DNA of 64,000 nucleotides from an uncultured Gammaproteobacteria bacterium (lineage in GTDB: Bacteria > Patescibacteriota > Microgenomatia > Levybacterales > UBA12049). How positions within the stretch are numbered: position 1 is the first letter of the stretch; each line of letters starts with the position of its first letter. The notes under the pieces were generated by a model that searched no databases, was not told the DNA's origin, and worked only from the letters and a program-made list of their open reading frames with translations. The position numbers and the translations under genes were made by a program. The stretch covers positions 14,213 to 78,212 of the forward strand of contig CAYYSJ010000006.1 in the NCBI GenBank assembly GCA_964474445.1, written 5' to 3'. Positions 2,242-20,289 of this stretch are shown here, in pieces.

Positions 2242-2336
2242 AGCTCCTCCTATTATGACAAAAAGGCAAAAGAAAGCAAATCCACACTGCTTTTTTGCTT
2301 GACAATCAAGGAAAAATTAACCAAACTAGACATAGC

Positions 2337-4022
2337 ATGAAATTTCTCCGTTTATTTCTTCCAAAAACAGTGTTGAAATATTCCCCTTCCATTATATTTG
2401 GATTGGTAATTCTTTTTTCAGTAATTATGCCAAGTTTTGCACAACGAGACTATACCATGCCCAGTACCGAGACAAACGTACCTCAAAACCTTCATACTTT
2501 GACACAAGGGTTACTCCTTGATCTTCTATCTGCAGCGACTTGCCAACTTGGTGGTGTGGACTTTATGACACCAAACCATAAATGTCTTGTTTATAACTCT
2601 CAAGGTCGACTAAGCTATGCAGATAACAGTTCAGGCGTGGTTGGTTTTCTCACCAATGCAATCCAAATCACCTATACGCCACCACTTCATACCTCCTATT
2701 ATGTGGCATATCTTAAAAATAATTTTGGTCTTGTGAAATCAGCTAATGCAGCAGGAAACAGCGGATTTGATCAACTGCAGCCCCTTACGAAGATTTGGTT
2801 AATATTCCGTAATCTCACATACCTTCTATATGTGATTATTTTTGTTGTTATTGGTTTTGCCATTATGCTTCGAGCGAAAATTGATCCCCGAACAGTTATG
2901 ACCATAGAAAATCAAATACCCAAACTCATTGTTAGCATTGTTCTGATCACTTTCTCCTTCGCTATAGCAGGCCTTCTAATTGATTTCCTTTGGGTGCTCA
3001 TGTATCTTGTCGTTAATGTTTTTGCCGCAGTAGACCCTAATTTACTGCCCGGAAATATTATTAGCGGCATAAGAGATAACCCAATTGGCGTCTATGGGAG
3101 AATTCAAGATGGATCCGTGTTTGGCCTCGCATGGCAAGTTGCAGGAGCATTAAATGACATGCTCAATGTAATCATAGGGAATGCTCTTAGTGCGCAGCTT
3201 GGATCAATACCAGTGGGCGGCCTTTTGTCAAAGATACTTGCCATCCTACCGCCATTTATTATTACTGCAACACTCCCGTGTGTTCCTTCAGCACTGCTAG
3301 GACTTATTCCTGGCTCTAACACTGATTTTGGGAAATGTATTGATGGGAATATGACTGCACAGCTCTCCTTTCTTGGAGCAATTGTTGCTTACCTTATTGT
3401 CCTTGTTGCTATGGTCGTTGCACTCTTTAAAATTTGGTTTACCCTTATTCAATCTTATGCAATGTTTCTCATTCTTGTTGCAACAGGACCGTTATTTATT
3501 TTGTCTGGAGTACTCCCTGGAAGTAAAGTGACATTTGAATGGTGGTTAAGACAACTCCTAGCCTACCTGTCATCCTTTATTGTTACCCTTGGTATTCTTC
3601 TTTTAGGAAAAGTTCTTATGGACGCTTTTGGCAACAGTACCAATGCGTTTGGCCCTCCTCTTATCGGAGGACAAATTGGACAAGTAGCAACAAGTACTCT
3701 TGGCGCAATTATTGGATTTGCAACATTTCTTCTTGTGCCACAAGCACTGACAATGGCCCGGGATGCAATCGGTGCAACACCTATTAAATATCTGCAGGGG
3801 ATTGGAGAAGGACTTGGTGCAGGAACGAAATTTGTTGGTGGAGTTGCTGGTGCAGGATTCAGGAGAGCATTCCACGACAGGAATCTCCAAACTGGGCAGG
3901 GAGAGGGATTTGGTACTCAATTATTGTTGGGACGAATTGACGAAGCGGGGACCTGGAGTGGCAAGTCATGGCAAGGATTTTTACGAAGAATGGCATATGG
4001 CAAGATGAAGGGAATGAAGTGA
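2337..4022 (+). CDS. Polytopic membrane protein, candidate VirB6/TrbL-like T4SS channel component
   Basis: N-terminal signal/TM (MKFLRLFLPKTVLKYSPSIIFGLVILFSVIMPSFAQ), many hydrophobic helices, Gly-rich C-terminus; sits in the T4SS-like cluster. ATG at 2337 preferred over the track's TTG at 2295. Confidence 0.45.
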   Translation: MKFLRLFLPKTVLKYSPSIIFGLVILFSVIMPSFAQRDYTMPSTETNVPQNLHTLTQGLLLDLLSAATCQLGGVDFMTPNHKCLVYNSQGRLSYADNSSGVVGFLTNAIQITYTPPLHTSYYVAYLKNNFGLVKSANAAGNSGFDQLQPLTKIWLIFRNLTYLLYVIIFVVIGFAIMLRAKIDPRTVMTIENQIPKLIVSIVLITFSFAIAGLLIDFLWVLMYLVVNVFAAVDPNLLPGNIISGIRDNPIGVYGRIQDGSVFGLAWQVAGALNDMLNVIIGNALSAQLGSIPVGGLLSKILAILPPFIITATLPCVPSALLGLIPGSNTDFGKCIDGNMTAQLSFLGAIVAYLIVLVAMVVALFKIWFTLIQSYAMFLILVATGPLFILSGVLPGSKVTFEWWLRQLLAYLSSFIVTLGILLLGKVLMDAFGNSTNAFGPPLIGGQIGQVATSTLGAIIGFATFLLVPQALTMARDAIGATPIKYLQGIGEGLGAGTKFVGGVAGAGFRRAFHDRNLQTGQGEGFGTQLLLGRIDEAGTWSGKSWQGFLRRMAYGKMKGMK

Positions 4023-7000: not shown

Positions 7001-7490
7001 CAAGGCGTTTTTTCAGCTCTACCATCTCTTGTTTAAGACCAGGCGTTGTTTCTAATGCTCTTTTTGCTTTCCAACCCATACCAATAATACCCTCTATCAA
7101 GTTGGTAAACTGTACATCCGATTTTCCTGATTCACGCAATTCTTTCAATAAACTCTCGAGATGTTCTCGAGGGGTTTTAGGCTTTGTAGTTTCATCTTTA
7201 TCTATCTGTGACTGCGCCTCTTTTGCTTTTGCTTTCATGTTATCCCGAAAGTTAGCAGGAGCGGGCTCAATGGTCGATCGTACGTTTTCTCTATTGGACT
7301 CTGTCCCCATTTCTTCTAATACTTGGGCCACTTGTTCTGGAGTTAACCTTTGTCCATTATTAAAGAATCCGCCTTCCGAAATTGGCTGCCCTTGTGCTTC
7401 GGGAGAGGATCCTCCACCATCTATTGCCATACCTTCAGCATAGCTATTTTGAACTCTTGATGTCAATGTTGGGTCAAATTCGTAGTTCAT
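4032..7490 (-). CDS. Large hypothetical protein (about 1150 aa), no TM, no recognisable catalytic motif
   Basis: Long uninterrupted ORF; first ATG at 7490 (track TTG at 7499); no Walker motifs seen; lies between the VirB6-like gene and the pilin-like genes. Confidence 0.6.
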   Translation of the reverse strand: MNYEFDPTLTSRVQNSYAEGMAIDGGGSSPEAQGQPISEGGFFNNGQRLTPEQVAQVLEEMGTESNRENVRSTIEPAPANFRDNMKAKAKEAQSQIDKDETTKPKTPREHLESLLKELRESGKSDVQFTNLIEGIIGMGWKAKRALETTPGLKQEMVELKKRLEQITTVAAQDKNAARLMTLELGNTLKKYYGYEKLRDEQMDFYSTPKNLEDLVERISDVVSDEFSVGGKHALITIDSETGEKRVNKDNLLLWVRRRVWFYHDLNATSKINLLQDIQLPTATRAYYLIELYGTDAYWGKRTTEIYQEVKKEDGVWRVDLERYNREGVVLTDENGKVRKDGAGRVLVGLLSENERGELRVVAEVPAPNIQVSEEYDPNDPSKPKDVQVYKVREVSRQDAAYDRLRDDILYEPYLADFIHNSAVDFRAAMGSEDKLSEVLGSIYSKPNALTEGRDRLLKILRYGSTDKQTHNGKGEIDRQVENNDYTSQGTVGKAVQRLLNAYDYMAEVNQGARIKGVDEQGKEKEYENLFRKSLGTEGAKEFYREVIRITLDKKYADQFGMAKKLTEELNKIFIQEKEGENKGAFRERQDWEKVDVLDILLLDKKGLEGDPKQKEPSKFVEWGISQEDYTRVLARIREDLAKDISQSTDSGKKETFQRQLNELNALTLERKSRVNSQDLRREFLYTMVGKGYGMTSELVSNGVFKDFVEGRKSLEDFAISFSKQSWDSNDAIFLNIFGSIKEVGGSRALVRDALRAAMVKQLKLSAFEAKYADMHAYDLAYIFGSTAKNDVIGIGFNAWSKLMNIRRYREGQVEGKNAYGNVFTINGIKKISFTFYEGMRVQKQGESGYGNMGKGTTLREILQGGAGDNMNLDGDIASFDFYENSMSQFYGDHLSNAFAVFKMLNKIEIEFNKIVSPDPRTGLLTVDTSAFWDFIDKFWKPIRYMLDLQAPNFEAQFRTWTYTSQPGYRGKVDRSVKMTTQSLRDLMFGKTVQDMKMYGFEVETDTGSKTQDEAWKKTGMARNLLAYIIAEQIRFHRQWRAKGAIAKYYGANEIEMLQGLFNSMTRSVAFNGEEVEILRDFFTIDEWDRIAKLGLLEDTGKIRRYLLWFNNPWWRLYAGEYGGDTVGFAADITRELFGTFFKMIFSGLKVGG

Positions 7491-7558
7491 ATGAAGCAAG
7501 TTTACTTCCTAAAAGCACACTTGCCTTGATATTTACCTTACAGAATTCTTTTGATACG

Positions 7559-8902
7559 ATGATACATATGGATTCCGACCATCTTGAATCACTCTATCCA
7601 ACAGCAAGTAGACAAGAAGAAATCACTGAAATTCTTTCCTACGTAAAAGAAGGACAATCTTGTCAATTGATTGCTCTGCCAGGTGTTGGACGAGGAAACT
7701 TACTAAACCTTCTTGCATACAATAGAGATCTTCGAATACTCCATTTAGGAGAGGAGGTATACCTCAAATATCATTTTGTGTTGGCTAATTTTTCTGAGGT
7801 AAAGAATAGATCACTTCTAGACATTATGAAATTTCTTTTCCTCGAACTTTCTTCGTCCTTGCATGAGAGGAAAAGAGACGAGGAATTTTTAGAGGTTGAT
7901 CAAATGTTTAAAGAAGCAATATCTTATAACGATGAATTAGTGCTTTTTCAAGCACTCAAAAAAGCAATTGAGTACTTAACGCTTGAGAAAGATATAACAG
8001 TTGTTTTTCTTCTTGAAAGATTTGAAACGTATGTACCACTTGTTACACAGGATTTTTTTAACAATTTACGGAGTATCCGAAATCGTGCAAAATATAAATT
8101 CTCTGTTGTCTTCTCTGTCACAAGACCGTTAGAGGAAATTCTAGAGCCAGCTCTTCTTGCAGATTTCTACGAATTTGTCGTAGATCATAACATCTATTTG
8201 CCTCTTTTAGATATGCCTGGTATCAATTTCCGTATCAGTTATTTAGAAAAACTGACCAGAAAAAAAATACCAGAAGAAATTACAAAAAAAATTTTAGAAT
8301 TTACTGCTGGACATGGGAAATTAACAAGACTCACCTTGGAAATTGCATGCTCAGATCGTACTGAAGAGCGACAAGTAAACATAATAACACTACTTTCCCA
8401 CAAAACCATTCGAGGAGCTCTATTTGAAATTTGGAATTTTCTTACTCCCGATGAACAAAACGATGTCTTTTCACTAGTAAAAGGAGACTCTGTTTCAAAT
8501 GCTTTTCTAGAACATGTAGGACTTCTCCAAAACGGACATGTCACAATTCCTCTTTTTGCAGATTTCGTTAAGAATTATTTGTCCGAAGAAGTTGCACAAG
8601 AACAACATATCTTCTTTAACCCTGAGACAAATAGTATTACCAAAGGGCATCAGATCCTTTCCGACATTTTAACAGGATCAGAATTTAAACTACTTCGTTT
8701 ACTGCTTGAACATATAGACACAATTATTGACCGCGATCGAATTATCCAAACAGTGTGGACAGATACAAAATCTCAAACAGGAGTTTCGGATCAGGCAGTT
8801 GACCAACTCATATTCAGACTAAGAAAAAAAATTGAAGACGATCCGAATAATCCTGTACATATTCAGACAGTGAAAGGTCGCGGTGTTAAATTTACTCCAT
8901 AA
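7559..8902 (+). CDS. Transcriptional regulator: N-terminal NTPase-like domain plus C-terminal OmpR/PhoB-type winged-helix DNA-binding domain, no receiver domain
   Basis: C-terminus LLRLLLEHIDTIIDRDRIIQTVWTD...AVDQLIFRLRKKIEDDPNNPVHIQTVKGRGVKFTP matches the trans_reg_C pattern; N-terminal LIALPGVGRGNLLNLL is P-loop-like; first ATG at 7559 (track TTG 7382 would overlap the upstream gene). Confidence 0.6.
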   Translation: MIHMDSDHLESLYPTASRQEEITEILSYVKEGQSCQLIALPGVGRGNLLNLLAYNRDLRILHLGEEVYLKYHFVLANFSEVKNRSLLDIMKFLFLELSSSLHERKRDEEFLEVDQMFKEAISYNDELVLFQALKKAIEYLTLEKDITVVFLLERFETYVPLVTQDFFNNLRSIRNRAKYKFSVVFSVTRPLEEILEPALLADFYEFVVDHNIYLPLLDMPGINFRISYLEKLTRKKIPEEITKKILEFTAGHGKLTRLTLEIACSDRTEERQVNIITLLSHKTIRGALFEIWNFLTPDEQNDVFSLVKGDSVSNAFLEHVGLLQNGHVTIPLFADFVKNYLSEEVAQEQHIFFNPETNSITKGHQILSDILTGSEFKLLRLLLEHIDTIIDRDRIIQTVWTDTKSQTGVSDQAVDQLIFRLRKKIEDDPNNPVHIQTVKGRGVKFTP

Positions 8903-8945
8903 CTTTTCTTGACAAAGAAATGCTCACTGTGGGACGATAAACCTA

Positions 8946-9545
8946 ATGAAAAAGCTTTTCCTTTCCCTTGCCATGCTTCCTCTCTTTTTCGTACTTCCTC
9001 AACTGTCATTTGCCGGAGGATGCACTGATAATAGAAGCATCTGTGTAAATCAATCTCTTCCTTCAGGAGTCAAGCCAGGTGATGTTTGCGGAAACTCGAC
9101 GAATTATGTTTATGGTTCAACGTCAGTTTGCTTTGGCGGAGCTTCTCCATGTATTCCCCGTTGCGGACTTGGGGATTGGTGGTGCTGCGATCCAAAACCT
9201 GGATATACTCCGGTAAACAAGGGGCCAGCTGCTCCTCCATGCAACCAATCAGATAATGGTAATTGCCTTTCTGTTGAAACAGGTGTTGGAACGATATCCA
9301 CACAACCCGCAAACTTTGTTAATAGTATTTACAGGATTCTTTTGGGGCTTGCTGGCGGAGTAGCACTACTTCTTATTATTGGAGCTGGATATCAAATGAT
9401 GACATCGCAGGGAAACCCAGAGAAAGTCAAAGAAGCACGAGAACGTCTTACCTCTGCAATAGTCGGACTGCTTTTTATCATTTTTTCATTTACAATCTTG
9501 CAAATAATAGGAGTGCAAATTCTACAAATACCTGGCTTTAAATAA
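8946..9545 (+). CDS. VirB2/TrbC-like pilin-family protein with an N-terminal Cys-rich (10 Cys) extracellular extension
   Basis: Signal peptide MKKLFLSLAMLPLFFVLPQLSFA; Cys-rich segment; C-terminal core AGYQMMTSQGNPEKVKEARERLTSAIVGLLFIIFSF shared with the three downstream paralogues. Confidence 0.5.
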   Translation: MKKLFLSLAMLPLFFVLPQLSFAGGCTDNRSICVNQSLPSGVKPGDVCGNSTNYVYGSTSVCFGGASPCIPRCGLGDWWCCDPKPGYTPVNKGPAAPPCNQSDNGNCLSVETGVGTISTQPANFVNSIYRILLGLAGGVALLLIIGAGYQMMTSQGNPEKVKEARERLTSAIVGLLFIIFSFTILQIIGVQILQIPGFK

Positions 9546-9547
9546 TT

Positions 9548-9889
9548 ATGAAATTACTTGCATTGACAGTTGGTGGAGGTTCATCAGGAGAACCAACATT
9601 TACAATACAACCGCCCTCTGATCTTCTAGATGTTAGCAATCTTACATTAGATAGACTTATTCATAACGGTATTACTTTGCTTCTTTATGTAATTATTCTT
9701 CTTAGCTTTATTTTTGTTGTTATTGCTGGACTCAAATGGATACTTTCCCAAGGAGATAAGAAAGGGGTTGAAGAAGCGCGAAAAACATTAACATTTGCGA
9801 TAGGAGGACTCGTTCTCGCTTTTCTTTCATTCTTTATTATTAATCTTATTGGATATGCACTCGGTGGCATCCCCTTACTTGGCAGGTAG
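9548..9889 (+). CDS. VirB2/TrbC-like pilin-family small membrane protein (paralogue 2)
   Basis: Core GLKWILSQGDKKGVEEARKTLTFAIGGLVLAFLSFFII; two hydrophobic helices flanking a charged loop. Confidence 0.55.
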   Translation: MKLLALTVGGGSSGEPTFTIQPPSDLLDVSNLTLDRLIHNGITLLLYVIILLSFIFVVIAGLKWILSQGDKKGVEEARKTLTFAIGGLVLAFLSFFIINLIGYALGGIPLLGR

Positions 9890-9934
9890 ACACTTGACAA
9901 GGAGTAAAAATACCCATACGATAAAGATAATTCT

Positions 9935-10330
9935 ATGAAGCACTTAGCAACGTTTTTCCTTCCTTTTGTATCATTGGTCATTGTGCCACAAGCCTTTGCA
10001 GATGTTACTGTTAACACATGCCCCCCTGGAAACTTTAATGCGTTATGTTTAAATGCAACTGATTTAGGGAGAGTTATTGGGAATGGAATTAACTTTTTGT
10101 TTGTTGTTGCAGCACTTCTAGCATTTGGATTTCTTGTTCTAGGAGGAATTAAATGGCTTACTTCTCAAGGAGAAAAAGAAGGGATTAATAAAGCTCGAGA
10201 GACAATTGTTGCAGCAGTGGTGGGATTGATTATAATTTTTCTCTCCTACCTCATTGTTAACTTTATCCTTAATCTCTTTGTTGGAGTAAGTCTTTTCAAT
10301 CTTACTCTCCCAACTATTACCGGACATTAA
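9935..10330 (+). CDS. VirB2/TrbC-like pilin-family small membrane protein (paralogue 3)
   Basis: Signal peptide ...VPQAFA; core GIKWLTSQGEKEGINKARETIVAAVVGLIIIFLSYLIV. Confidence 0.55.
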   Translation: MKHLATFFLPFVSLVIVPQAFADVTVNTCPPGNFNALCLNATDLGRVIGNGINFLFVVAALLAFGFLVLGGIKWLTSQGEKEGINKARETIVAAVVGLIIIFLSYLIVNFILNLFVGVSLFNLTLPTITGH

Positions 10331-10351
10331 TCTTTGTAGCAACTAGCTCCA

Positions 10352-10690
10352 TTGCCTTTTTTTATACTCTTTGTTACGCTTTATCATATGTGGGGAACTT
10401 GTATAGTAAATGGCATTCCAACAATACAATGTATTTTCCCTCTCGTAAACATTATTATTAATGCAGCTCTTGGCCTTGTCGGCACTGTTGCAGTGCTCCT
10501 TATCCTTTATGCGTCTATCAAATACATTACTTCTGGAGGCGGAAAAAGCGCAGAAGAGGCAAAAAATATTCTTACCTATGCAATCGTTGGTCTTATTGTT
10601 GTTTTGGGTTCATTTTTTATTGTCAGGCTTATCGCTGGATTCACAGGTGTAGAATGCATCAATACATTTAGTTTCTTCAGTTGTCAATGA
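10352..10690 (+). CDS. VirB2/TrbC-like pilin-family small membrane protein (paralogue 4); start uncertain (TTG 10352 or ATG 10388)
   Basis: Core IKYITSGGGKSAEEAKNILTYAIVGLIVVLGSFFIV. Confidence 0.5.
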   Translation: MPFFILFVTLYHMWGTCIVNGIPTIQCIFPLVNIIINAALGLVGTVAVLLILYASIKYITSGGGKSAEEAKNILTYAIVGLIVVLGSFFIVRLIAGFTGVECINTFSFFSCQ

Positions 10691-11358
10691 CTACGATGAA
10701 GTCTCAATAAACCCTTCGTCATTCCTAACGTTAGGATATCAATAAAGATAGCAATCCCCAAATACCAGATCATTGACGAAAAAAGCAAATTCACAGAAGG
10801 AATTCCAACCCACCCTTGAATATAATTCCAAACATTCACTTTTAAAAAATACAAAAAAACAACAAGGACTATACAAATTGCTAAAAGACCTAAGGCTCCT
10901 TCCATGTCCTTTTTGCTCGAAAACATGGTATTACTTATTTCAAAAACGGCATACAGCAAGAGAAGTGTTTGCCCTGAGATAAGCTTGAGGTGTGGAAGAA
11001 AAAACCAAAAAAGAAGAAACAACATCGAAAGGCCAACAAGAAGTGGAGCAACACCAATAAGAAAACGCCTGAATGGATCTGTAGAGGCAATTGCAACACT
11101 GCCCATTTTCACCTCAGTACCTCGTATTTCAGGTAAAAATTCTATTTCTCCTGTAGGGACAAAAAGAATGCTTGCCGTCAAAAAATGAGAAAGCTCATGA
11201 ACGATAACCCCTGGTAAAAAAAGAATAGATAATAGCTGGATTACAATAGTCTGGTGTTTAAACATGTGGTAGAGCCATACAGACAAAAATTTTGTAAGCT
11301 GTTGGGAAAGAAGAAAAAGCACCACAAGCTCAACAAGAAAAATCCCTAGTATATACAT
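10684..11358 (-). CDS. Polytopic membrane protein with an intramembrane HExxH motif, putative zinc metallopeptidase
   Basis: VIVHELSHFLTASILFV lies within a hydrophobic helix; six or more predicted TM segments; convergent with the pilin array. Confidence 0.5.
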   Translation of the reverse strand: MYILGIFLVELVVLFLLSQQLTKFLSVWLYHMFKHQTIVIQLLSILFLPGVIVHELSHFLTASILFVPTGEIEFLPEIRGTEVKMGSVAIASTDPFRRFLIGVAPLLVGLSMLFLLFWFFLPHLKLISGQTLLLLYAVFEISNTMFSSKKDMEGALGLLAICIVLVVFLYFLKVNVWNYIQGWVGIPSVNLLFSSMIWYLGIAIFIDILTLGMTKGLLRLHRSH

Positions 11359-11483
11359 ACTCTTAGTATACTACCAACATTATTTAAGAAGGTAGGTTTC
11401 TGTTTTCACAAGATTTTTATGCCTAAGGCTGATCTATTTTGTAGGGGTTGCAATGAGATTTTTCACATAGTACGCTTTTGTAT

Positions 11484-12629
11484 ATGGATAATCACCCAAT
11501 CCCCCAAGATGTTACAAACTTCCAATTTCGTCTTATCGGAGATATGACAATAAAGCAGTTTGCTTACCTTGCTGCAGGTGTTGGTTCTGCTTGGATTCTC
11601 TTTGTTCTGCCTCTATCTTTTTTTATAAAATTTCCGCTCGTTGCTTTTTTAGGAGGGGGAGGTATTTTTTTGGCGTTTGTGCCTATTGAGGGGAGACCAG
11701 CAGATGCTATGATGTTATTCTTTTTAAAATCTCTTTTCTCCCCTACTCAATATATTTATCGACAATCTGGTGGTTCTTTTCCAACAACACCTGCTCCTCA
11801 GGACGAGAAGACTACGGTAAAACAGGAAGAGACAAAAGAGGAGAAAAAAGATGAGAAGGATGGAAAAATTCATTTAGAAGCATCGCCTACTCCTCTTGCA
11901 CAAACTGTGCTGCAACCATCACCGGTTGTTGAAGAAAAGAAAGAAGCTATAGAACAACCAGTAGCGACACCTCTTTCTGATGTTTCAACAGAAGAGACAT
12001 CGGCACAAGAGCTTGGGAAAGAAGCTGCAGAACTGGTAAAAGAACTTCAGGACGCAAAGAAGGAAGAGATACAAGCACAAGAAGGATCAAAAGAAGCAAC
12101 TGTTGCTCATGAAAAAGTGGCACAACTTGAAGATGAACTACAAACAATTCTTAAACAAAAACAAGAATTAGAAAAACAGCTTCTTGAACTAGAGAAGCAA
12201 CTAGCAGAAAAGAAACAACAGGTATTTACACCAAGCGCAGCACAAGATCAACCACAACAGACATCTCACGTTATTAAAGTCGCACCCAACCAACAAGCAT
12301 CAGTTGGTACGCCACTCACCAACGATGTCCCTAATCTGATCTCAGGTGTTGTAAAAGATCCTCGGGGGAATGTTTTGCCAAATATTCTTATCGAAGTAAA
12401 AGACAAGGATGGCAACCCCGTCCGTGCATTTAAGACAAATGGACTTGGTCAATTTGCTTCAGCAACCCCTGTTATCAGTGGCGTATATACCATTACCTTT
12501 GAAGACCCACAAGGCAAGCATCGCTTCGATGCTGTTGAGATAACTGCAAACGGGACAGTACTCCCACAACTGGAAGTTATCTCTGTTGACCAACGAGAAG
12601 AACTTCGACGTGAGTTATTTGGAGGATAA
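11484..12629 (+). CDS. PrgI/VirB3-like T4SS membrane protein with a long coiled-coil and a C-terminal beta-sandwich-like extension
   Basis: N-terminal FQFRLIGDMTIKQFAYLAAGVGSAWILFVLPL...GRPADAMMLFFLKSL resembles a PrgI-family TM hairpin; then an E/K/Q-rich coiled coil; C-terminus GVVKDPRGNVLPNILIEVKDKDGNPVRAFKTNGLGQFA. ATG at 11484. Confidence 0.5.
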   Translation: MDNHPIPQDVTNFQFRLIGDMTIKQFAYLAAGVGSAWILFVLPLSFFIKFPLVAFLGGGGIFLAFVPIEGRPADAMMLFFLKSLFSPTQYIYRQSGGSFPTTPAPQDEKTTVKQEETKEEKKDEKDGKIHLEASPTPLAQTVLQPSPVVEEKKEAIEQPVATPLSDVSTEETSAQELGKEAAELVKELQDAKKEEIQAQEGSKEATVAHEKVAQLEDELQTILKQKQELEKQLLELEKQLAEKKQQVFTPSAAQDQPQQTSHVIKVAPNQQASVGTPLTNDVPNLISGVVKDPRGNVLPNILIEVKDKDGNPVRAFKTNGLGQFASATPVISGVYTITFEDPQGKHRFDAVEITANGTVLPQLEVISVDQREELRRELFGG

Positions 12630-12631
12630 TC

Positions 12632-13288
12632 ATGAAACAACCTGCCCGACAAGCATCCACGCAACATTTTACAGAAGTCTTGGATATACACGATGAGATC
12701 GTTCTTCTCTCTGGAGGGAATGCGTGTATCATTGTGGAGGTTCAAGCTGTTAATTTTGCATTATTATCTGCTGAAGAACAGGATGCAAAAGTTTTTGGGT
12801 ACGCAGCACTACTTAATTCTCTTTCTTTCCCTGTTCAGATACTTATGAGAAGTAAAAAAATTGATATTATGCCATATATCAATTCACTTGCTGATGCGGC
12901 AACAAAAACAACGAATCCGAAACTTGCTGAGAATATTAATAAATATAAAGAATTTGTGAAACAATTGGTAACAACTGCAGTTGTTCTCGATAAAAAGTTC
13001 TATATGGTTCTCTCCTATTCTATGCTTGAGGAAGGAGTTGGAAGTATTACCAAGATTGCAAAAAACACTCCTTCTGATATGGATGATTTTTTTGTGAAAG
13101 CAAAGGCAGCCTTGCATACGAAAGCAGAGTCGCTCCTCTCTCAAATAGATAGAATGGCTCTTCGTGCAAAGATAGTAGAAAAAGATGCTCTTATTAACTT
13201 ATTTCACGATATGTTTAATGAGGAAGGAAGCCGTGCAAAGATACATGAAAGCCATGCTGTAACGGCAACCAAAGGAGGTGTTCACTAA
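12632..13288 (+). CDS. Hypothetical protein translationally coupled to VirB4; resembles a VirB4 N-terminal domain
   Basis: RBS GGAGGA then ATG; stop overlaps the VirB4 start (TAATG); segment ILLSGGNACIIVEVQAVNFALLSAEEQDAKVFGYAALLNSLSFPVQILMRS. Confidence 0.4.
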   Translation: MKQPARQASTQHFTEVLDIHDEIVLLSGGNACIIVEVQAVNFALLSAEEQDAKVFGYAALLNSLSFPVQILMRSKKIDIMPYINSLADAATKTTNPKLAENINKYKEFVKQLVTTAVVLDKKFYMVLSYSMLEEGVGSITKIAKNTPSDMDDFFVKAKAALHTKAESLLSQIDRMALRAKIVEKDALINLFHDMFNEEGSRAKIHESHAVTATKGGVH

Positions 13289-15114
13289 TGTTTGGGAAGA
13301 AAAACCCTTCTGCTCAACAAGTAGAGCAACCTCAACAAAATCTGTTAGAGAAAGGCATGCAGTCAATCCCTGATATTATTGCACCCTCATCTGTTGAGGT
13401 AGATTTTAAGTCAATCCGTGTTGGGGAACGATTTTATCGGACCTTTTTTATTGTTGGCTATCCTCGTTATGTATCAACAGGGTGGCTTTCCCCTGTCATT
13501 GATTTTGACCACTCTCTTGACATTAGCATGTTTATTTACCCAGTCTTTACTGATGACGTCTTATCTAATTTGAAGAGGAAAATTGCCGAAATGGAGGCAA
13601 CAATTTCTTCCGATGAAGAGAAGGGCAAGCCAGTAAATCCAAAAATTAACGCAGCGCTGAATGATGCATATGGACTCCAAAACGAATTAGCAAAAGGCAT
13701 TGAACGTTTTTTCCAATTTAGTCTCTATGTCGCTCTCTCTTCGGATGACAAAAAGGATTTAGAGGAAACGACAAAAAAACTTACCAGTACTCTCGCTTCG
13801 CTTTTAGTAACACCGAAGATAGCAACGCTTCAGATGGAAGACGGGTTTAAGACAATACTCCCTATTGGGCAAGATAGACTTTTCATCACGAGAAATATGG
13901 ATACATCCTCACTTGCTTCAACATTCCCCTTTACCTCCGCAACCCTAACACAAGATAAAGGGATTCTTTACGGAGTTAATCAACAAAACGGATCCTTAGT
14001 CGTTTTTGACAGATATTCTTTAGAAAACGCTAACAGTGTTATTTTTGGAAAATCAGGTTCAGGAAAATCATTCATGATTAAGCTTGAAATTATGCGCCAA
14101 TTCATGTTTGGGACAGAGGTTATTGTTATTGATCCTGAAAACGAATACGGAAAATTAGCACAAACGTTGGGAGGGGAATATCTGAACTTTTCAGCAATCT
14201 CTCCTATAAAGATAAACCCTTTTGATTTGGCAGGCGTCTATGAAGAAGGAGAGAACGAACTTGGAACAAAAATTATTTCACTTCGAGCGCTATTGAAAAT
14301 AATGCTTGGCAACATCACCCCAGCGGAGGATGCAATCTTAGATAGAGCCCTGGTAGCAACTTACTCTGAAAAGGGCATTACAGCAGATCCTGCAACGCAA
14401 TCTAAAACTCCACCTATTTTGGAGGATTTATACAAAGTACTCAAAACGATGCAAGATCAGATAGCTCAAGGACTAGCACTTCGTTTGGAGAAATATGTTA
14501 CCGGGAGTCTTGCAGGACTTTTCAACCAACAATCAAATTTTGACATTAAAAATCCACTCACAGTCTTTGCTTTAAGAGATCTAGAGGATGAAGTACGACC
14601 AATTGCCATGCATATTATCCTAGACTTTGTCTGGACACGTGTTCGAAAGACTTTGAAGAAGCGTCTTCTTATCGTGGATGAAGCATGGTATTTAATGAAA
14701 CATGAAGATTCCGCATCATTTATTTACGGCATTGCTAAACGCGCTCGTAAATACTATCTAGGACTCACTACCGCGACCCAGGACGTGCAGGATTTCCTTT
14801 CGAGTGATTATGGTCATGCTATCCTTTCGAACTCCTCTGTTCAAATTCTACTCAAGCAGAGTACTTCAGAAATAGAAACAGTTGCGACCACTTTTTATCT
14901 TTCAGAGGGTGAAAGGCAAATGCTTATTTCAGCTGGTGTTGGCCAAGGACTTTTTTTTGCTGGACAAAGTCATGTTGCCATACAAGTTGTTGCAGCACCA
15001 TTTGAGCATGAGATCATCACATCAAATCCTGCAGAACTACAAAGGCAACAAGAACAAACTTCTAATCAAACACAACCGGTTACAACTCCGCCTAATGCAA
15101 GAGGCATTCAATAA
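13288..15114 (+). CDS. VirB4/TrbE/TraC-family T4SS ATPase, Gram-positive (PrgJ/TrsE) type
   Basis: Walker A GKSGSGKSFMIK, Walker B RLLIVDEAWYLM, DPENEYGKLA, ATTFYLSEGE; RBS AAAGGAGGTG upstream. Confidence 0.85.
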   Translation: MFGKKNPSAQQVEQPQQNLLEKGMQSIPDIIAPSSVEVDFKSIRVGERFYRTFFIVGYPRYVSTGWLSPVIDFDHSLDISMFIYPVFTDDVLSNLKRKIAEMEATISSDEEKGKPVNPKINAALNDAYGLQNELAKGIERFFQFSLYVALSSDDKKDLEETTKKLTSTLASLLVTPKIATLQMEDGFKTILPIGQDRLFITRNMDTSSLASTFPFTSATLTQDKGILYGVNQQNGSLVVFDRYSLENANSVIFGKSGSGKSFMIKLEIMRQFMFGTEVIVIDPENEYGKLAQTLGGEYLNFSAISPIKINPFDLAGVYEEGENELGTKIISLRALLKIMLGNITPAEDAILDRALVATYSEKGITADPATQSKTPPILEDLYKVLKTMQDQIAQGLALRLEKYVTGSLAGLFNQQSNFDIKNPLTVFALRDLEDEVRPIAMHIILDFVWTRVRKTLKKRLLIVDEAWYLMKHEDSASFIYGIAKRARKYYLGLTTATQDVQDFLSSDYGHAILSNSSVQILLKQSTSEIETVATTFYLSEGERQMLISAGVGQGLFFAGQSHVAIQVVAAPFEHEIITSNPAELQRQQEQTSNQTQPVTTPPNARGIQ

Positions 15115-15131
15115 CGATATACTAATTGTAT

Positions 15132-16946
15132 ATGACTACCAACGTGGGGGAAGAAACTGCCTTTGCAAGATTTAGAAGGTTTTTGCTGGAAAAGGAAGGA
15201 GAAAAGAACGAACTTGAAACTGCTATCCAAACGGCAAATACAGAAGATCTTGGGAAAATCGCATACAATAAGGCGCATCAGTATTCTCAGCAAGGCTTAA
15301 TAGATCCTAAAACACTTGATGCCATTCAACAAACTGCTCCAGTAATTAATCCCGAACCTTTTGAACAACCCATCCCAACAATCCCTCCTGAAAAAGGACG
15401 TTCTGCTGACAATTCTTCTGACAAAAAACGCCATAGGAGTGAAAAAGCTCTTTCAAAAACTCCTGGTATACACACCCTTATTATAAATCAGCAAAAGGAA
15501 GAGCTTTTAAAAAAATTCGATGAACTAGCAGCAAATCCTGATAATAAAGACCGACTCCTTGATGAGCTACTCGATAGGTTTGAGGCAAAAGCACTATTTG
15601 ATGACTATCATACAAAATTTATATCGTCAATTCAACAACTCCCTTCTTTCCAGAACCTTACGCACCAACAACAAGCTGACTTGCTAGAGAGACTTACCAA
15701 ACAACAGGAAGAGCTAAGAAAAAGAGATCCACTTGAAAAAGAAGCGGGAGAGATAAGAGCAATAAAAGAAGCAAAAAGAGGTGCTCTAAAGTCTAAGATC
15801 GAAGAGTTATTAGAAACTCAAGACAGAAAAAGAGCGCAAGAAACTTTTTCGTCTCTTGTTTCAACACGTCAAACTGTTCAAGGAGAACTCGTGAAAGAGA
15901 TATTTCAGCCATCTCAACCTATATGGAAATCACAAGATTTTTCTTTTGTTTTCGAACAGCTTTACAATCCCCCTCCTCGGTTCGTCATAGTTGCTACAGT
16001 AGCACAATCACCCATTACACACTCTCTTCAGGAGAGCTACGAGGACGTTGAAAGACCTCTCTCTACACCATCTGATAGTGTTCCAAGACAAGTAAGACAA
16101 CAAGGCAAACAACCATTATTCCCACAGACAAGGGAGTTTGTGAAAAACTTAGGCAAAAATCTAGGGAAAAAACTACGTAATAAGGCAGCAGCAGAGGTCG
16201 GAAAAGGACTTGTAGAAAAAGGTTTCTTACGATGGGCCTTTACTGCACCACCTTATTTAGGAGAGATAGTTCTTGGACTTATGGCTCTCTTTGCTCTTGT
16301 TATGTTCGTAATTATATTCTCCTCGAAAAAATTGAATTCGCCATCTAATAATCAAGATGTTGCCAATATCACCCTTGTTGCGACAACAATTCAACTATGC
16401 GAAAAGACACCACTAGGGTTTTGGCTTCCTCCCGCTCCAGTTTGTGCGCTCACTATTCTTGGTCTTAATATTCTTAGCCCTGGAGATCTATTAAACTTTG
16501 CGAGAGCAATTATTGCTGCATACCCTGATTTTCAATGCGGACAATTCATTTGGGCCGCGGAACGGTATATTTTGCATTGGCCTGTCTTCCCAGGAAATGT
16601 AAATAGCGTGTTCGAGTGGTATCTCATTGATCGTGCAACACATAGTTTGCCTGGGTACACCTGGATTAGTAATCCAGACCTTGCTTCTCATCGACCTGAT
16701 CCGGCAAATATTGCTGCTGGTGATATTATTTTATATGGAAGCACTGGCCATACTGATCCTGGACACATTGCAATCGTGATTGATTTACCAAAGGATAAGA
16801 ATGGGAATGTTGACCACTTCAATATTACCGTTTCTGAGGCGAATTATCATCATGGGGCAATAGACATCCGCCCGACAAATTTATTTGATGACCTTGGAAG
16901 AGGAGCAAATATACTAGGCTGGTGGAGACGAATCGCAACACAATAA
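15132..16946 (+). CDS. Membrane-anchored cell-wall hydrolase with a C-terminal CHAP (Cys/His amidohydrolase/peptidase) domain; VirB1-functional analogue
   Basis: TM helix YLGEIVLGLMALFALVMFVIIF; CHAP signature FQCGQFIWAAERY ... GDIILYGSTGHTDPGHIAIVIDL; ATG at 15132. Confidence 0.65.
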   Translation: MTTNVGEETAFARFRRFLLEKEGEKNELETAIQTANTEDLGKIAYNKAHQYSQQGLIDPKTLDAIQQTAPVINPEPFEQPIPTIPPEKGRSADNSSDKKRHRSEKALSKTPGIHTLIINQQKEELLKKFDELAANPDNKDRLLDELLDRFEAKALFDDYHTKFISSIQQLPSFQNLTHQQQADLLERLTKQQEELRKRDPLEKEAGEIRAIKEAKRGALKSKIEELLETQDRKRAQETFSSLVSTRQTVQGELVKEIFQPSQPIWKSQDFSFVFEQLYNPPPRFVIVATVAQSPITHSLQESYEDVERPLSTPSDSVPRQVRQQGKQPLFPQTREFVKNLGKNLGKKLRNKAAAEVGKGLVEKGFLRWAFTAPPYLGEIVLGLMALFALVMFVIIFSSKKLNSPSNNQDVANITLVATTIQLCEKTPLGFWLPPAPVCALTILGLNILSPGDLLNFARAIIAAYPDFQCGQFIWAAERYILHWPVFPGNVNSVFEWYLIDRATHSLPGYTWISNPDLASHRPDPANIAAGDIILYGSTGHTDPGHIAIVIDLPKDKNGNVDHFNITVSEANYHHGAIDIRPTNLFDDLGRGANILGWWRRIATQ

Positions 16947-16948
16947 CT

Positions 16949-17686
16949 ATGGATAAGAAACTTTTTATTATTGCTGGAGGAAGTACACTTCTTTTATTTT
17001 GTTTCTTTCTCCTTGTTTTCTTTCTCGCCAGTATAAAAGAAAAAAATGTTCATCCTCCGATTGAATCCCCAACCCCGACACCTGTAAAAAGTAGTCAATT
17101 TTTGCTTAATGGACCAAGCAGTACACAGCAAAGACCAGTCAAACTGTTATATTTTTCACCAGCAGATGGGGCACGAAATGTTTCCTCTCAACAAGAAATT
17201 GTTATCACATTTGATCAACCTGTCGCAACAGAAAGTGTCTCTTTTTCGATCTTTCCAGAATTGGATGTCCGTATTTCTTCTCGTCTAAACTCAATTATCA
17301 TTATACCAAATACCCCTTACCAGCCTAATATTATCTATACATACAGTCTATTCACCCCAGATAATACAAAAATAATTTCTGCTTCTTTCTCCTCAGGAAA
17401 TTCTCAAACTCCAATAAACCCATTAAAGGGGGATTATAAAAATACAGATTCACTCGGAGACAGTGCTCAACGAGAGAATTATCCTGATGTTTATTTAGCA
17501 AGCTTTACTCCGTATGATGGCACGAGTTTCTTTGTAAACAATGAGTTTGAGTCATCACCAAGCGGTCACTATATATTTGTGATGACGCAGAAATTACAGA
17601 CTGGAAAGAGTGATTTTTTTGATTGGTTGAAAAAGCTTGGTTTGACACAAAGTCAAATAGATCGCATTACTGTAACATATCAATAA
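16949..17686 (+). CDS. Hypothetical secreted/membrane-anchored protein
   Basis: N-terminal TM MDKKLFIIAGGSTLLLFCFFLLVFFLASI; S/T/P-rich; last gene of the cluster before dnaN. Confidence 0.45.
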   Translation: MDKKLFIIAGGSTLLLFCFFLLVFFLASIKEKNVHPPIESPTPTPVKSSQFLLNGPSSTQQRPVKLLYFSPADGARNVSSQQEIVITFDQPVATESVSFSIFPELDVRISSRLNSIIIIPNTPYQPNIIYTYSLFTPDNTKIISASFSSGNSQTPINPLKGDYKNTDSLGDSAQRENYPDVYLASFTPYDGTSFFVNNEFESSPSGHYIFVMTQKLQTGKSDFFDWLKKLGLTQSQIDRITVTYQ

Positions 17687-17687
17687 T

Positions 17688-18794
17688 CTATGCCTGTGTT
17701 CGAATAGGCATGATCAAGTGGAGAAAAGTTGGATTTCCTTCAGTATGAAATACTCCTGGATTAAGAGGTCCCGTCATTTCAAAAGAAAGTTCTGAGTCTG
17801 TAATATTGGTCAAGGCATCTAAAATATATCGCGCATTAAAGGCGATTTCATTTTCCTCACCAGTAAGCCGTGCATCAACATCAACAGTATTTTCCCCTAA
17901 TGAAGGGGTTTTTGCGCTTACAACTACCTTTTCCTTTTGTAAAGAAAAGGTAATAATATTTGCTGTTTCACGAGCAAATATCGAGCAGATTTTCACTGCC
18001 TTTAATAATTCTTCTCTATCTACCGATACTTTTGTCGCAACGTCTGTTGGAATAACTTTCTCATAATTTGGGAATTCAGCGTCAATAAGACGGCCAACAA
18101 GTATTGTCTCCTCCTGTTCAAATAAAAGCTGATTTGTTTTTTCTGAAACATACATTGTGATGTTACCGTTCTCAGAAAGTACCATTGCTTCTTTGATAAT
18201 ACGTGCCGGAATAATAACTGGCCTTGCCAATTTCACACCATCTGTCGGTGTTGCTACTTCCTCTAAGGAAAGTCTGTACCCATCTGTTGCAACAACAACA
18301 AATCCATTATCTGTTTTTTTAATAAGCACTCCAGCAAGTGCAGGCCTGGTTGCCTCAGGGCTTGAAGAAAAAACAATTTTCCCAAAAATTCCTTTCATCT
18401 TTCCTTTTTCAAATGTTAATAATTCCTCACCCTTTTCATCGTAAAGCATTGGGAATTCATCTTTTGGGGAAGTCTGTAGAAGTGTTTTTGTTTTTTTACT
18501 GATGATCTCTAAACTTCCGTCTTTTGTTTGTAGAGTCATTTTATCTTGAGGAAGAGAATTAACTAATTCTAAGAAAAGTTTTGCTGGTACTGCAATTGCT
18601 CCTTCTTCTTCTATTTGTGCAGGAAGTGTTGTTTCTATTCCTATTTCAAGATCTGTACTAGATATAGATACTTTTCCATTCTTTGTTTCAAGTAAGACAT
18701 GAGAGAGTATTGGTAATTGATTTCGTGAAGAGATAGCATGGTTTGCTAGTGTTAACTTTTTTTGTAGATTTTCTGCTAAAAGGGTGACTTTCAT
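17688..18794 (-). CDS. dnaN: DNA polymerase III beta subunit (sliding clamp)
   Basis: MKVTLLAENLQKKLTLANHAISSRNQLPILSHVLLE...; three-domain length; directly downstream of dnaA. Confidence 0.9.
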   Translation of the reverse strand: MKVTLLAENLQKKLTLANHAISSRNQLPILSHVLLETKNGKVSISSTDLEIGIETTLPAQIEEEGAIAVPAKLFLELVNSLPQDKMTLQTKDGSLEIISKKTKTLLQTSPKDEFPMLYDEKGEELLTFEKGKMKGIFGKIVFSSSPEATRPALAGVLIKKTDNGFVVVATDGYRLSLEEVATPTDGVKLARPVIIPARIIKEAMVLSENGNITMYVSEKTNQLLFEQEETILVGRLIDAEFPNYEKVIPTDVATKVSVDREELLKAVKICSIFARETANIITFSLQKEKVVVSAKTPSLGENTVDVDARLTGEENEIAFNARYILDALTNITDSELSFEMTGPLNPGVFHTEGNPTFLHLIMPIRTQA

Positions 18795-18866
18795 ATATAT
18801 ATTTTTGTAGTTGTAGTAGTGTATCTGGAAATGTGGAAAAAAGCAAGAAGATAGCTTCAAAAATCC

Positions 18867-18945
18867 TGTGGATAACGTGTTGAAAACTTTTGGGATAACA
18901 TGTTGAAAAGATATTTTTTCTCAACTTTCCCTCTTATTATCCACG
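18867..18945. promoter_or_regulatory. DnaA boxes in the dnaA-dnaN intergenic region
   Basis: TGTGGATAA at 18867-18875 and TTATCCACG at 18937-18945. Confidence 0.5.
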
Positions 18946-20289
18946 CATCATTTTAGTTATCCCCATGATTTCCTCAGACAATATTTTGTTTTGTGTGGCT
19001 AAATCCTCCATCTTTTCCACACCATACATCACTGTTGTATGGTCTCTTCCCCCCAAGATATTTCCTATTTCAACATACGTTAATCCCAACTCTTTCTTTA
19101 AAAGAAACATTGTTACCTGTCGTGCTTTAACGAGGGAGGCATCTCTCTTCGGTCCCTTTAATTGGGTTGATTTGATTTTGTAAAAATTGCAGGTTGTTTC
19201 AATAACATCTTCTGCATGGAGGATATGATTCTCCCTATTCTCTCTCCCATTCCCTAATGCTTTTTCTGCGAGGTCCTCGGTTATTTCCGCTCCTCCTGTT
19301 GCTGCAGCTTGGGTAACAACTCGAAGCAACGCTCCTTCAAGGCTTCTGACGTCTTGTTCTTTTTCTGCAATTTTTTTGGCTATTTCAATAGAAAGGTTAT
19401 ATCCGAATTTCTCTGCCTTTTTCAAAACGATTGCTGTCCGAAGCTCAAAATCAGGTGCTTCAACATCAACGGTTAATCCACCTGCAAAGCGAGAGGAAAG
19501 TCTTGCCTCAAGTTTTTTAATCTCACTTGGCGGCCTATCAGAGGACAAAACAATTTGGGCGCCGCCATCAATGAGTGAGTTAAAAGTATGGAAAAGTTCT
19601 TCTTGAACCCTGTCTTTCCCTGCGATAAATTGCACATCGTCAATAATAAGTAAGTTTGCTGAACGGAATTTTTTCTTCATACGAGCAGTATCATTACTTC
19701 GAATAGCCTCAACAACTTCATTCGTAAATTCTTCAGAGGTGATATAAATAATTTTGTTATTAGGATCTTGGGAGTACACCTCATTTGCAATAGCTTGCAT
19801 TAAATGGGTTTTCCCTACTCCCACAGGACCATATATAAACAGAGGATTGTAAGATCGTCCAGGCGTTTTTGCAACATTCCGTGCTGATTCAAAGGCAAGC
19901 CTATTGGAATCAGAGACAGCAAGTGATTCGAAGGTATAATCAGGTCTTACTCGTGGAAGATGGCCAATGGGCATTTTAGGTCTAGTGTCTGTTGCAAAAA
20001 GCGGTGCTTCCTTGTCTTCTCTCTCTGTATGGTTCTGCACACTCTTGGCAACAAAGAGAATATCAGTGTCTTGCTTAGTGTGTTTTTCTAGAGCAGTCTT
20101 AATAGTATCCTTAAACCGTTTTTGGAGAAGGTCAATAACCATTGTGGATGGTGCAGCAATGGTTGCAATATTGTCTTCGAGTGATAATAATGCGGTATTT
20201 TTAAAGAGTGTGAGGAAGTTCGCTCGAGAAACCTCTATTTCTATATCTGAGAGAATATCTTTCCAAAGTTTTTCTGTCTTATCATTCAT
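18937..20289 (-). CDS. dnaA: Chromosomal replication initiator protein DnaA
   Basis: Walker A GPVGVGKTHLMQAIANE, Walker B LLIIDDVQFIAGK, C-terminal DNA-binding DHTTVMYGVEKM. Confidence 0.95.
   Translation of the reverse strand: MNDKTEKLWKDILSDIEIEVSRANFLTLFKNTALLSLEDNIATIAAPSTMVIDLLQKRFKDTIKTALEKHTKQDTDILFVAKSVQNHTEREDKEAPLFATDTRPKMPIGHLPRVRPDYTFESLAVSDSNRLAFESARNVAKTPGRSYNPLFIYGPVGVGKTHLMQAIANEVYSQDPNNKIIYITSEEFTNEVVEAIRSNDTARMKKKFRSANLLIIDDVQFIAGKDRVQEELFHTFNSLIDGGAQIVLSSDRPPSEIKKLEARLSSRFAGGLTVDVEAPDFELRTAIVLKKAEKFGYNLSIEIAKKIAEKEQDVRSLEGALLRVVTQAAATGGAEITEDLAEKALGNGRENRENHILHAEDVIETTCNFYKIKSTQLKGPKRDASLVKARQVTMFLLKKELGLTYVEIGNILGGRDHTTVMYGVEKMEDLATQNKILSEEIMGITKMMRG

Follow-up and report, generated by a model that had tools for sequence, protein, structure and literature searches.

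A 64,000-nucleotide (nt) stretch of contig CAYYSJ010000006.1 (assembly GCA_964474445.1, positions 14,213 to 78,212 of the forward strand), hereafter the window, derives from an uncultured bacterium that GTDB places in the Levybacterales of the Microgenomatia. It carries four consecutive small genes on its + strand, p1 to p4, which we regard with high confidence as a pilin array belonging to a type IV secretion system (T4SS) of the patescibacterial kind. The genes occupy positions 8946..9545 (p1, 199 amino acids (aa)), 9548..9889 (p2, 113 aa), 9935..10330 (p3, 131 aa) and 10388..10690 (p4, 100 aa), where an earlier note on this DNA had correctly placed four open reading frames (ORFs) in a row, and they represent pilin classes 1 to 4, respectively. 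Every one of the four has an exact or near-exact database counterpart called as a gene on independent contigs; for p1 there is an exact match (P0121) together with some 35 full-length homologues in which the cysteine positions are kept. The start of p2 lies 2 nt past the stop codon of p1, a gap so short that co-translation is probable, and the p2-p3 spacer measures 45 nt. For p4, the most likely start is the ATG at 10388, judging from the sequence comparisons: gene calls on three independent metagenomic (Logan) contigs use it, the resulting 100-aa form is identical to a database protein (P0241), and the extension to the TTG at 10352, from which a mechanically defined ORF of 112 aa would run, is not kept in the alignment of orthologues.

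The termini of the four proteins differ. By inspection, Sec-type signal peptides are present in p1 (MKKLFLSLAMLPLFFVLPQLSFA followed by GG) and in p3 (MKHLATFFLPFVSLVIVPQAFA followed by DV), while p2 and the 100-aa form of p4 are without one, so that the shared signal peptide described in the earlier note is found in only two of the four; p2 has instead a short conserved N-terminal motif, MKxLALxIxG. In p1 the signal peptide is followed by a cysteine-rich, beta-rich ectodomain (residues 24-118 approximately, with 10 cysteines), the pilin hairpin and a C-terminal IPGFK. The N-tail of p3 holds two conserved cysteines, and its second helix is followed by the protein end ...LTLPTITGH; p4 has two cysteines in its N-tail and a further two in its C-tail. 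The LPTITG near the end of p3 was considered as a sortase signal and rejected, since the class consensus is [LI]-P-[TSK]-[LIF] rather than LPXTG and no anchor follows downstream.

What unites the four is a C-terminal region of about 75 residues, over which they can be aligned (MAFFT) and which consists, as hydropathy analysis also indicates, of two long hydrophobic helices flanking a short polar loop. The loop carries the common motif G-x-K-[WY]-[IL]-T-S-[QG]-G-x-K...EA[RK]..[LI]..A[IV].GL, so that the two helices and common core of the earlier note are borne out and its exact core motif holds overall, with departures in p1 (YQMMTSQG) and in p4, which is one loop residue short. Full-length identity of p2, p3 and p4 to p1 amounts to 30-39%, local identity between the pilin domains is 39-48%, and pairwise BLAST E-values range from 6e-5 to 2e-18; the link between p2 and p3 (48% local identity, E 1.7e-18) ties p2 to the family. 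A hidden Markov model (HMM) derived from the cores of the four proteins and run iteratively against every ORF of 50 aa or more in the 64-kb window recovered exactly p1 to p4 and no other ORF, with p2 scoring 83 bits. The earlier note had made its reading depend on such similarity, and the aligned proteins are indeed significantly similar to one another.

These proteins are short, hydrophobic and of low complexity, and p2 scores under the Pfam cut-off, as might be expected if their likeness reflected nothing but chance or the shared composition of hydrophobic peptides and if some of the ORFs were not genes. Such an account is contradicted by the gene calls on independent contigs, by orthologues whose order is kept across more than 20 genomes and by an HMM that matches just these four ORFs across the window; we give it practically no weight, and by these sequence criteria it is refuted. 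The likeness of p1 to p4 to the Pfam family PF18895 (T4SS_pilin) is far beyond what chance would give, with p1 (40.3 bits), p3 (34.6 bits) and p4 (34.7 bits) passing its gathering cut-off of 26.6 bits.

Relationships to other pilin-like families are more distant. The NCBIfam model NF045849 (Mbov_0395 pilin-like conjugal transfer protein) matches all four proteins with E-values from 2e-9 to 5e-3, and its curated cut-off of 40 bits is reached by none (36.9, 18.0, 16.4 and 29.8 bits for p1 to p4); by sequence, they are related to this equivalog and are not members of it. When an alignment of 36 class-1 sequences (A3) was compared by hhalign with a reference alignment (A5) of five Agrobacterium, Rhizobium and Acetobacter VirB2 sequences, collected from annotated plasmids via tblastn, the two matched over 60 columns in the mature VirB2 region (probability 74.5%, E 2.7e-5), with a loop 8 residues longer in the class-1 family than in VirB2. 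A tblastn search of 72,556 plasmids with the p1 pilin domain gave no match, indicating that these proteins are not close relatives of plasmid VirB2/TrbC. Searching PDB sequences with a profile of the four proteins returned just cytochrome oxidase helices (E about 0.1) and matched no solved structure. The AlphaFold2 (AF2) model of p1 has a mean predicted local distance difference test score (pLDDT) of 82.7 and forms a hairpin of helices 121-153 and 158-192, with block-mean pLDDT of 84-93 across both; the p4 model (mean pLDDT 73) pairs helices 13-48 and 53-85. In a Foldseek comparison of the p1 model with the PDB, the best hits were generic helical hairpins (E 1.2) and the cysteine-rich domain was unmatched; fold searches cannot distinguish the p1 and p4 hairpins from unrelated helical hairpins.

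Comparison with related genomes shows how common such arrays are. The VirB4 encoded downstream has its closest relatives, with up to 91% identity, in Patescibacteria/Levybacteria, and 80 related loci were retrieved from GTDB genomes, all of them patescibacterial and mostly from Levybacteria and other Microgenomatia. Of the related loci, 23 combine an upstream flank of 7 kb or more with a VirB4 identity of at least 64%; among them, the number of pilin genes is four in 15, five in 3, three in 2, seven in 1 and none in 2, so that an array is present in 21 of 23 and the four-gene form is the commonest. Beyond this core group, a Levyibacteriota locus (L030:3117-6928) carries a run of seven pilin genes that does not begin with a long class-1 gene, and a Woesebacteria locus (L057:741-3286) has five on the strand opposite to virB4, so that neither the size nor the orientation of the array is constant outside the group.

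Three published reports provide the background. Quinonero-Coronel et al. 2025, whose search of 3,035 Patescibacteria genomes relied on the same Pfam models, describe 441 arrays of 2-11 pilin genes in 383 assemblies, enriched in Microgenomatia, with a mean within-array identity of 25% and a maximum of 54%, and with T4SS loci often near dnaA (PMC12102498). In the Saccharibacteria, the pilin genes of the Southlakia T4SS cluster are given by Wang et al. 2023 as essential for epibiotic growth (PMC10633639), and a 2025 review counts six VirB2-like, sequence-divergent pilins in that cluster (PMC12857230). The array in the window has the properties by which the arrays of the first survey are defined, namely at least two pilin genes that are in tandem, as here, or separated by a single gene, in a patescibacterial genome, close to a virB4 of the Patescibacteria/MPF-FATA clade and with high within-array divergence (PMC12102498). 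It also resembles them in that its tandem, divergent PF18895/VirB2-like genes stand by virB4, prgI/virB3, trsD and virB6, in its chromosomal position near dnaA, in its Microgenomatia lineage, in a within-array identity inside the reported range and, as far as the approximately 40 larger window ORFs scanned show, in having no relaxase or coupling protein nearby. The published arrays include the 'Sec secreted array' of TM7x and, in Southlakia epibionticum ML1, an essential array of six pilins (PMC10633639; count from PMC12857230), and no categorical difference from them was apparent. The four-gene array is thus a typical new example of documented patescibacterial pilin arrays and not an oddity; the earlier note had held four copies in a row to be unusual, a view that neither the published survey nor the copy number in related genomes supports.

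The feature that distinguishes these arrays emerges when their members are compared across genomes. In the 23 genomes, the best cross-genome match of a position-1 protein is another position-1 protein in 505 of 506 comparisons, and position 3 matches position 3 in 433 of 506 and position 4 matches position 4 in 455 of 506. Median identity between proteins at the same position is 57, 41, 52 and 47% for positions 1 to 4, against 39% within arrays. Paralogues thus group by array position and not by genome, in an order that recurs in more than 20 genomes, and p1 to p4 appear, by sequence, to be members of four old, anciently diverged classes. Each class has features of its own: class 1, a signal peptide, then a hypervariable cysteine-rich ectodomain of 78-570 aa and the pilin domain; class 2, the conserved motif MKxLALxIxG...P.G[VI]PTGG at the N-terminus and no signal peptide; class 3, a signal peptide, a conserved pair of N-tail cysteines and the motif L-x-[LI]-P-[TS]-[LI] at the C-terminus; and class 4, conserved cysteine pairs in both N-tail and C-tail. 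What appears to be new is that Levybacteria-like arrays constitute a four-class set with positional orthology whose first gene carries a hypervariable cysteine-rich ectodomain, a description not met with in the extracts of PMC12102498, PMC10633639 or PMC12857230.

The pilin domain of class 1 is better conserved than those of the other three classes and ends with an invariant PG in the motif IPGF, and its ectodomain is essentially unalignable between genomes, with only about 6% of pairs detectable by BLAST. Used alone as a query, the ectodomain of the window protein found only two matches at E<=1e-3 among 1.84 billion representatives, one a class-1 pilin with a duplicated module and the other an unrelated repetitive protein. 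A related class-1 pilin (P0256) has two tandem copies of the cysteine-rich module that is present as a single copy in p1 (9015-9299), which points to an ectodomain that is modular and expandable by duplication.

Positional orthology bears directly on what the copies are for. A variation model, suggested for Patescibacteria by analogy to the VirB2 arrays of Anaplasma and Bartonella (PMC12102498), would make them interchangeable major pilins, expressed alternately for different hosts or to evade defences. The low within-array identity of 30-39%, the variation in array size from 3 to 7 between genomes and a class-1 ectodomain that is truly hypervariable would all suit it, and the promoter-like sites before p1, p3 and p4, described below, would permit separate expression. 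Interchangeable copies would nevertheless hardly be expected to group by position across genomes rather than by genome, or to keep distinct conserved termini and cysteine patterns class by class; in addition, the four-gene order is kept in 15 of 23 related loci, p1 and p2 are probably co-translated from genes 2 nt apart, the variation is concentrated in a single domain of a single class, and the pilin genes of Southlakia are reported to be essential (PMC10633639), contrary to redundancy. We therefore consider the variation model quite improbable. The heteropolymer that the earlier note had offered alongside surface variation fares better: positional orthology and class-specific features argue, at the level of sequence, for a heteropolymer or specialised roles and disfavour simple surface variation by interchangeable copies, and differentiated, non-redundant subunits of a single pilus or conduit are to be preferred.

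The surroundings identify the locus as a chromosomal, monoderm-type (MPF-FATA-derived) T4SS of a Levybacteria-like Microgenomatia genome. Downstream of the array, at 11484..12629 (+), lies a gene for a PrgI/VirB3-like protein (PF12666, 34.4 bits) with a C-terminal CarboxypepD_reg domain (PF13620, 35.1 bits), which is kept in 76 of the 80 loci. VirB4 is split: a TrsD-like protein of 218 aa at 12632..13288 (+) equals its N-terminal part (E 2.2e-7 to positions 128-284 of VirB4_plasma, the full-length NCBIfam model of VirB4 from Mycoplasma integrative and conjugative elements (ICEs); TrsD E 1.7e-3), and its stop codon overlaps the start of the gene for the VirB4-like ATPase, of the monoderm-type CD1110 family, at 13288..15114 (+) (NF045971, 410 bits against a cut-off of 325; PF19044, 110 bits). 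This pair is kept in 77 of 80 Microgenomatia loci, and the array ends 2.6 kb upstream of the ATPase gene, a distance whose median in related loci is 2632 bp. On the other side of the array, a VirB6/TrbL-like polytopic membrane protein is encoded at 2295..4022 (+) (PF04610, 29.9 bits, cut-off 25.9). Between it and the regulator described below, a 1155-aa protein without a Pfam or NCBIfam match is encoded on the - strand at 4032-7499; its conservation is only slight, with 22-32% identity in 4 related loci, and it may serve the locus as a variable effector or surface protein.

The pilin genes are immediately preceded, on their own strand, by the gene at 7568..8902 (+) for a putative regulator with a C-terminal winged helix of the OmpR/PhoB type (PF00486, 67 bits), whose mechanical ORF starts at TTG 7382; the gene is so placed in most of the 22 related loci that have it. 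About 400 aa at its N-terminus are unrecognised, with a degenerate P-loop-like GVGRGN and no receiver domain, and a paralogue (23% identity, E 8e-31) lies 24 kb away at 33239-34561 (+). Convergent with p4 and overlapping its stop codon, a gene at 10684..11358 (-) encodes a polytopic membrane protein of 224 aa that contains the HExxH sequence VHELSHF and has a Pfam M50 match at E 0.14 only. It was considered as a dedicated pilin peptidase or fixed partner of the array and rejected, being found between array and prgI in only 5 related loci; its membership in the T4SS is uncertain, and a part in pilin processing is possible but unsupported.

The interval between virB4 and dnaN (15126-17686, +) holds a weak CHAP-domain protein at 15126..16946 (+), a candidate cell-wall hydrolase and VirB1 analogue (PF05257, 22 bits, under the cut-off of 26), and a Big_5 Ig-like protein, which have BLAST counterparts in 0 and 2 of the 80 related loci, respectively; on this sequence comparison, the interval is a variable cargo slot beside the conserved T4SS core. 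It is followed by dnaN and dnaA (17688..20289, -), with yidC also adjoining, which mark the origin region of the chromosome at a distance of 7-8 kb from the array, a synteny seen in approximately 60 of the 80 loci. Elsewhere the window is made up of chromosomal housekeeping genes, among them those for PGK, FBPase, a class I aminoacyl-tRNA synthetase, RuvB, DnaG and a sigma-70 family factor, and a Pfam scan of about 40 larger ORFs of the window revealed no relaxase or coupling protein.

Promoter-like sites recur within the locus. TTGACA-N18-GACGAT (8909..8941, +) ends 7 nt before the ATG of p1, and TTGACA-N17-TACGAT (9894..9925, +), located in the p2-p3 spacer 12 nt before the start codon of p3, is the best sigma-70-like match (10/12) on the + strand between 7000 and 13500. 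The composite pattern TTGnnn-N17/18-[TG]ACG[AC]T, defined post hoc once the sites had been seen, occurs just four times in the window, its matches ending 12 nt before the start of p3 and 7 nt before those of p1, p4 and prgI; their number does not exceed that in shuffled sequence (3.8 expected), and only their placement is suggestive. The hexamer [TG]ACG[AC]T also stands 7 nt before the ATG of the regulator, without a TTGnnn element resembling a -35 box. The regions concerned are 7555-7570, 8909-8948, 9894-9937, 10352-10390 and 11448-11486, all on the + strand, and no Shine-Dalgarno sequence precedes the regulator, p1, p3, p4 or prgI. This arrangement suggests, as a lead rather than a finding, leaderless or very short-leader mRNAs from several promoters in the T4SS locus; the sites inside the array may allow the differential expression that the earlier note had proposed.

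PrgC of pCF10, which the earlier note had named together with VirB2 and TrbC, is a cell-wall-anchored surface protein with an LPXTG sortase signal, a hydrophobic stretch and a charged tail, and no C-terminal LPXTG signal of this type is present in p1 to p4. The comparison with VirB2 remains apt, the four being VirB2-like pilin paralogues of PF18895 in a T4SS locus, and the reference to PrgC is a misnomer, as the VirB2-like pilus protein of this Gram-positive T4SS is PrgF (bioRxiv 10.64898/2025.12.18.695078). According to the same source, about half of the reference plasmids have several pilin candidates, and in 16 that were inspected one per plasmid was modelled as a pilus. With PrgF and with Mbov_0395 of Mycoplasma ICEs the system in the window shares MPF-FATA-type machinery (a CD1110-family VirB4, PrgI and TrsD) and a small two-helix membrane protein encoded near virB6 and virB4, p1 matching NF045849 at E 2e-9. 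Unlike Mbov_0395, its best-scoring protein stays below the cut-off of that model (36.9 against 40 bits), and unlike these conjugative systems with their relaxase and coupling protein, it is apparently not conjugative.

Pilins of the TrbC/VirB2 family (PF04956) lose a signal peptide to give a mature protein of about 70 aa, which is cyclised or acetylated in some members, and they polymerise into a helical filament outside the cell whose lumen is lined by the loop. VirB2, TrbC and TraA (PF04956) resemble the four proteins in their hairpin of two hydrophobic helices joined by a short loop that is polar and positively charged, in the probable orientation of their tails, in a location beside virB3 and virB4, in a Sec signal peptide (here in two of four proteins) and, for VirB2, in the alignment of its mature Agrobacterium form with the class-1 profile. 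They differ in the 8-residue extension of the loop with its conserved S-[QG]-G, in the scores under the PF04956 cut-off, in the presence of four paralogues rather than the usual one, in the large N-terminal ectodomain of one protein and in the lack of a signal peptide in two; moreover, in contrast to Gram-negative T4SSs, the host is a monoderm without VirB7/9/10. As with the VirB2 paralogues of Anaplasma and Bartonella, several divergent virB2-like genes follow one another in a T4SS that serves host interaction, but in the 23 genomes they are old, ordered and class-specific rather than lineage-specific, interchangeable expansions. A functional analogy may also be drawn with the minor pilins of type IV pili and type II systems (GspH/I/J/K; PilV/W/X/FimU), likewise an ordered set of four differentiated genes in which one enlarged member could cap or prime the filament; there is no homology, those proteins having another fold, a prepilin-peptidase leader and another assembly ATPase. 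Class 1 and classes 2-4 together would recall the division between VirB5 and VirB2 in Gram-negative systems.

Taken as a whole, the data are best explained, and probably so, by four anciently diverged, non-redundant VirB2-like subunits of a patescibacterial T4SS that would work as follows. The conserved cysteine pairs imply that the tails of the proteins are on the extracytoplasmic side, which would put the positively charged loop in the cytoplasm before assembly; from sequence we thus infer an N-out/C-out topology as in VirB2/TraA. Each pilin would enter the membrane as a hairpin, its two tails facing outwards and the conserved, positively charged S-[QG]-G loop facing the cytoplasm. The VirB4/TrsD ATPase, together with VirB3/PrgI and VirB6, would then pull the subunits from the membrane, and these would polymerise into a short pilus or conduit reaching the host bacterium. 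Class 1, with its hypervariable and presumably disulfide-rich ectodomain on a very conserved anchor, would most likely be the host-recognition subunit, at the tip or decorating the filament, and classes 2-4 would be structural or priming subunits. For this specific model of heteromeric assembly with class 1 as the adhesin, our confidence falls slightly short of an even chance.

Several observations weigh against this explanation. Positions 2 and 3 are not cleanly separated, the best match of a position-2 protein being at position 2 in 282 of 506 comparisons and at position 3 in 194, and p2 lies under the PF18895 cut-off (24.3 bits, E 3.4e-5). Comparison with TrbC/VirB2 profiles, which the earlier note had proposed, gives a divided result: class 1 aligns to VirB2 as described above, but under the Pfam model TrbC/VirB2 (PF04956; cut-off 27.9) the scores of p1 to p3 are only 22.2, 14.8 and 11.7 bits and p4 has no match, and an hhalign comparison of the class-4 family alignment (A4) with the five VirB2 sequences detected no profile similarity (probability 0.5%). 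The AF2 confidence is low for the tails of p4. In 24 of 29 more distant Microgenomatia loci no array lies closer than 10 kb to VirB4, also under relaxed thresholds, and the array is thus not universally linked to the T4SS machine. Finally, to our knowledge no filament of any patescibacterial T4SS has been seen so far.

Some of these points would also suit proteins that are not pilus subunits at all and never leave the membrane, serving instead as small membrane parts of the channel or stalk, or as chaperone-like partners of VirB6 or VirB3: the fold is a generic transmembrane helical hairpin that structure searches do not discriminate, the TrbC/VirB2 scores are sub-threshold, and pili have not been observed in Patescibacteria. 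A large secreted, cysteine-rich ectodomain in class 1 and extracytoplasmic cysteine pairs in classes 3 and 4 fit exposed subunits better, the apparent remote homology of class 1 to VirB2 spans the whole mature pilin, and PrgF, a monoderm homologue, behaved as a pilus-forming protein in mutagenesis and labelling (bioRxiv 10.64898/2025.12.18.695078). A purely membrane-bound role is accordingly unlikely, and exposed, differentiated pilus subunits remain our preferred explanation.

A bolder version of this explanation may be formulated, although it is speculative and, with all of its parts required to hold jointly, rather unlikely. In it, the four classes would be obligate partners in a single heteromeric filament of the T4SS; class 1, modular, fast-evolving and disulfide-rich, would bind host receptors, replace the missing VirB5-type tip adhesin and set the host range; disulfides linking the N-tail to the C-tail of class 4 would serve as a non-covalent-backbone counterpart to the head-to-tail cyclisation seen in TrbC/VirB2; and classes 2-4 would be expressed from leaderless promoters of their own under the adjacent winged helix-turn-helix regulator.

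The patescibacterial T4SS is the first T4SS reported to be essential for the survival of its owner, and it is thought to be the conduit by which these ultra-small epibionts exploit host bacteria. A single locus adds little to this picture, and the comparative result, a fixed four-class set in which one member bears a hypervariable ectodomain, is the more useful one. It argues against such arrays as antigenic-variation cassettes, and it gives a testable model in which class 1 would set host specificity and classes 2-4 would form the structural core.

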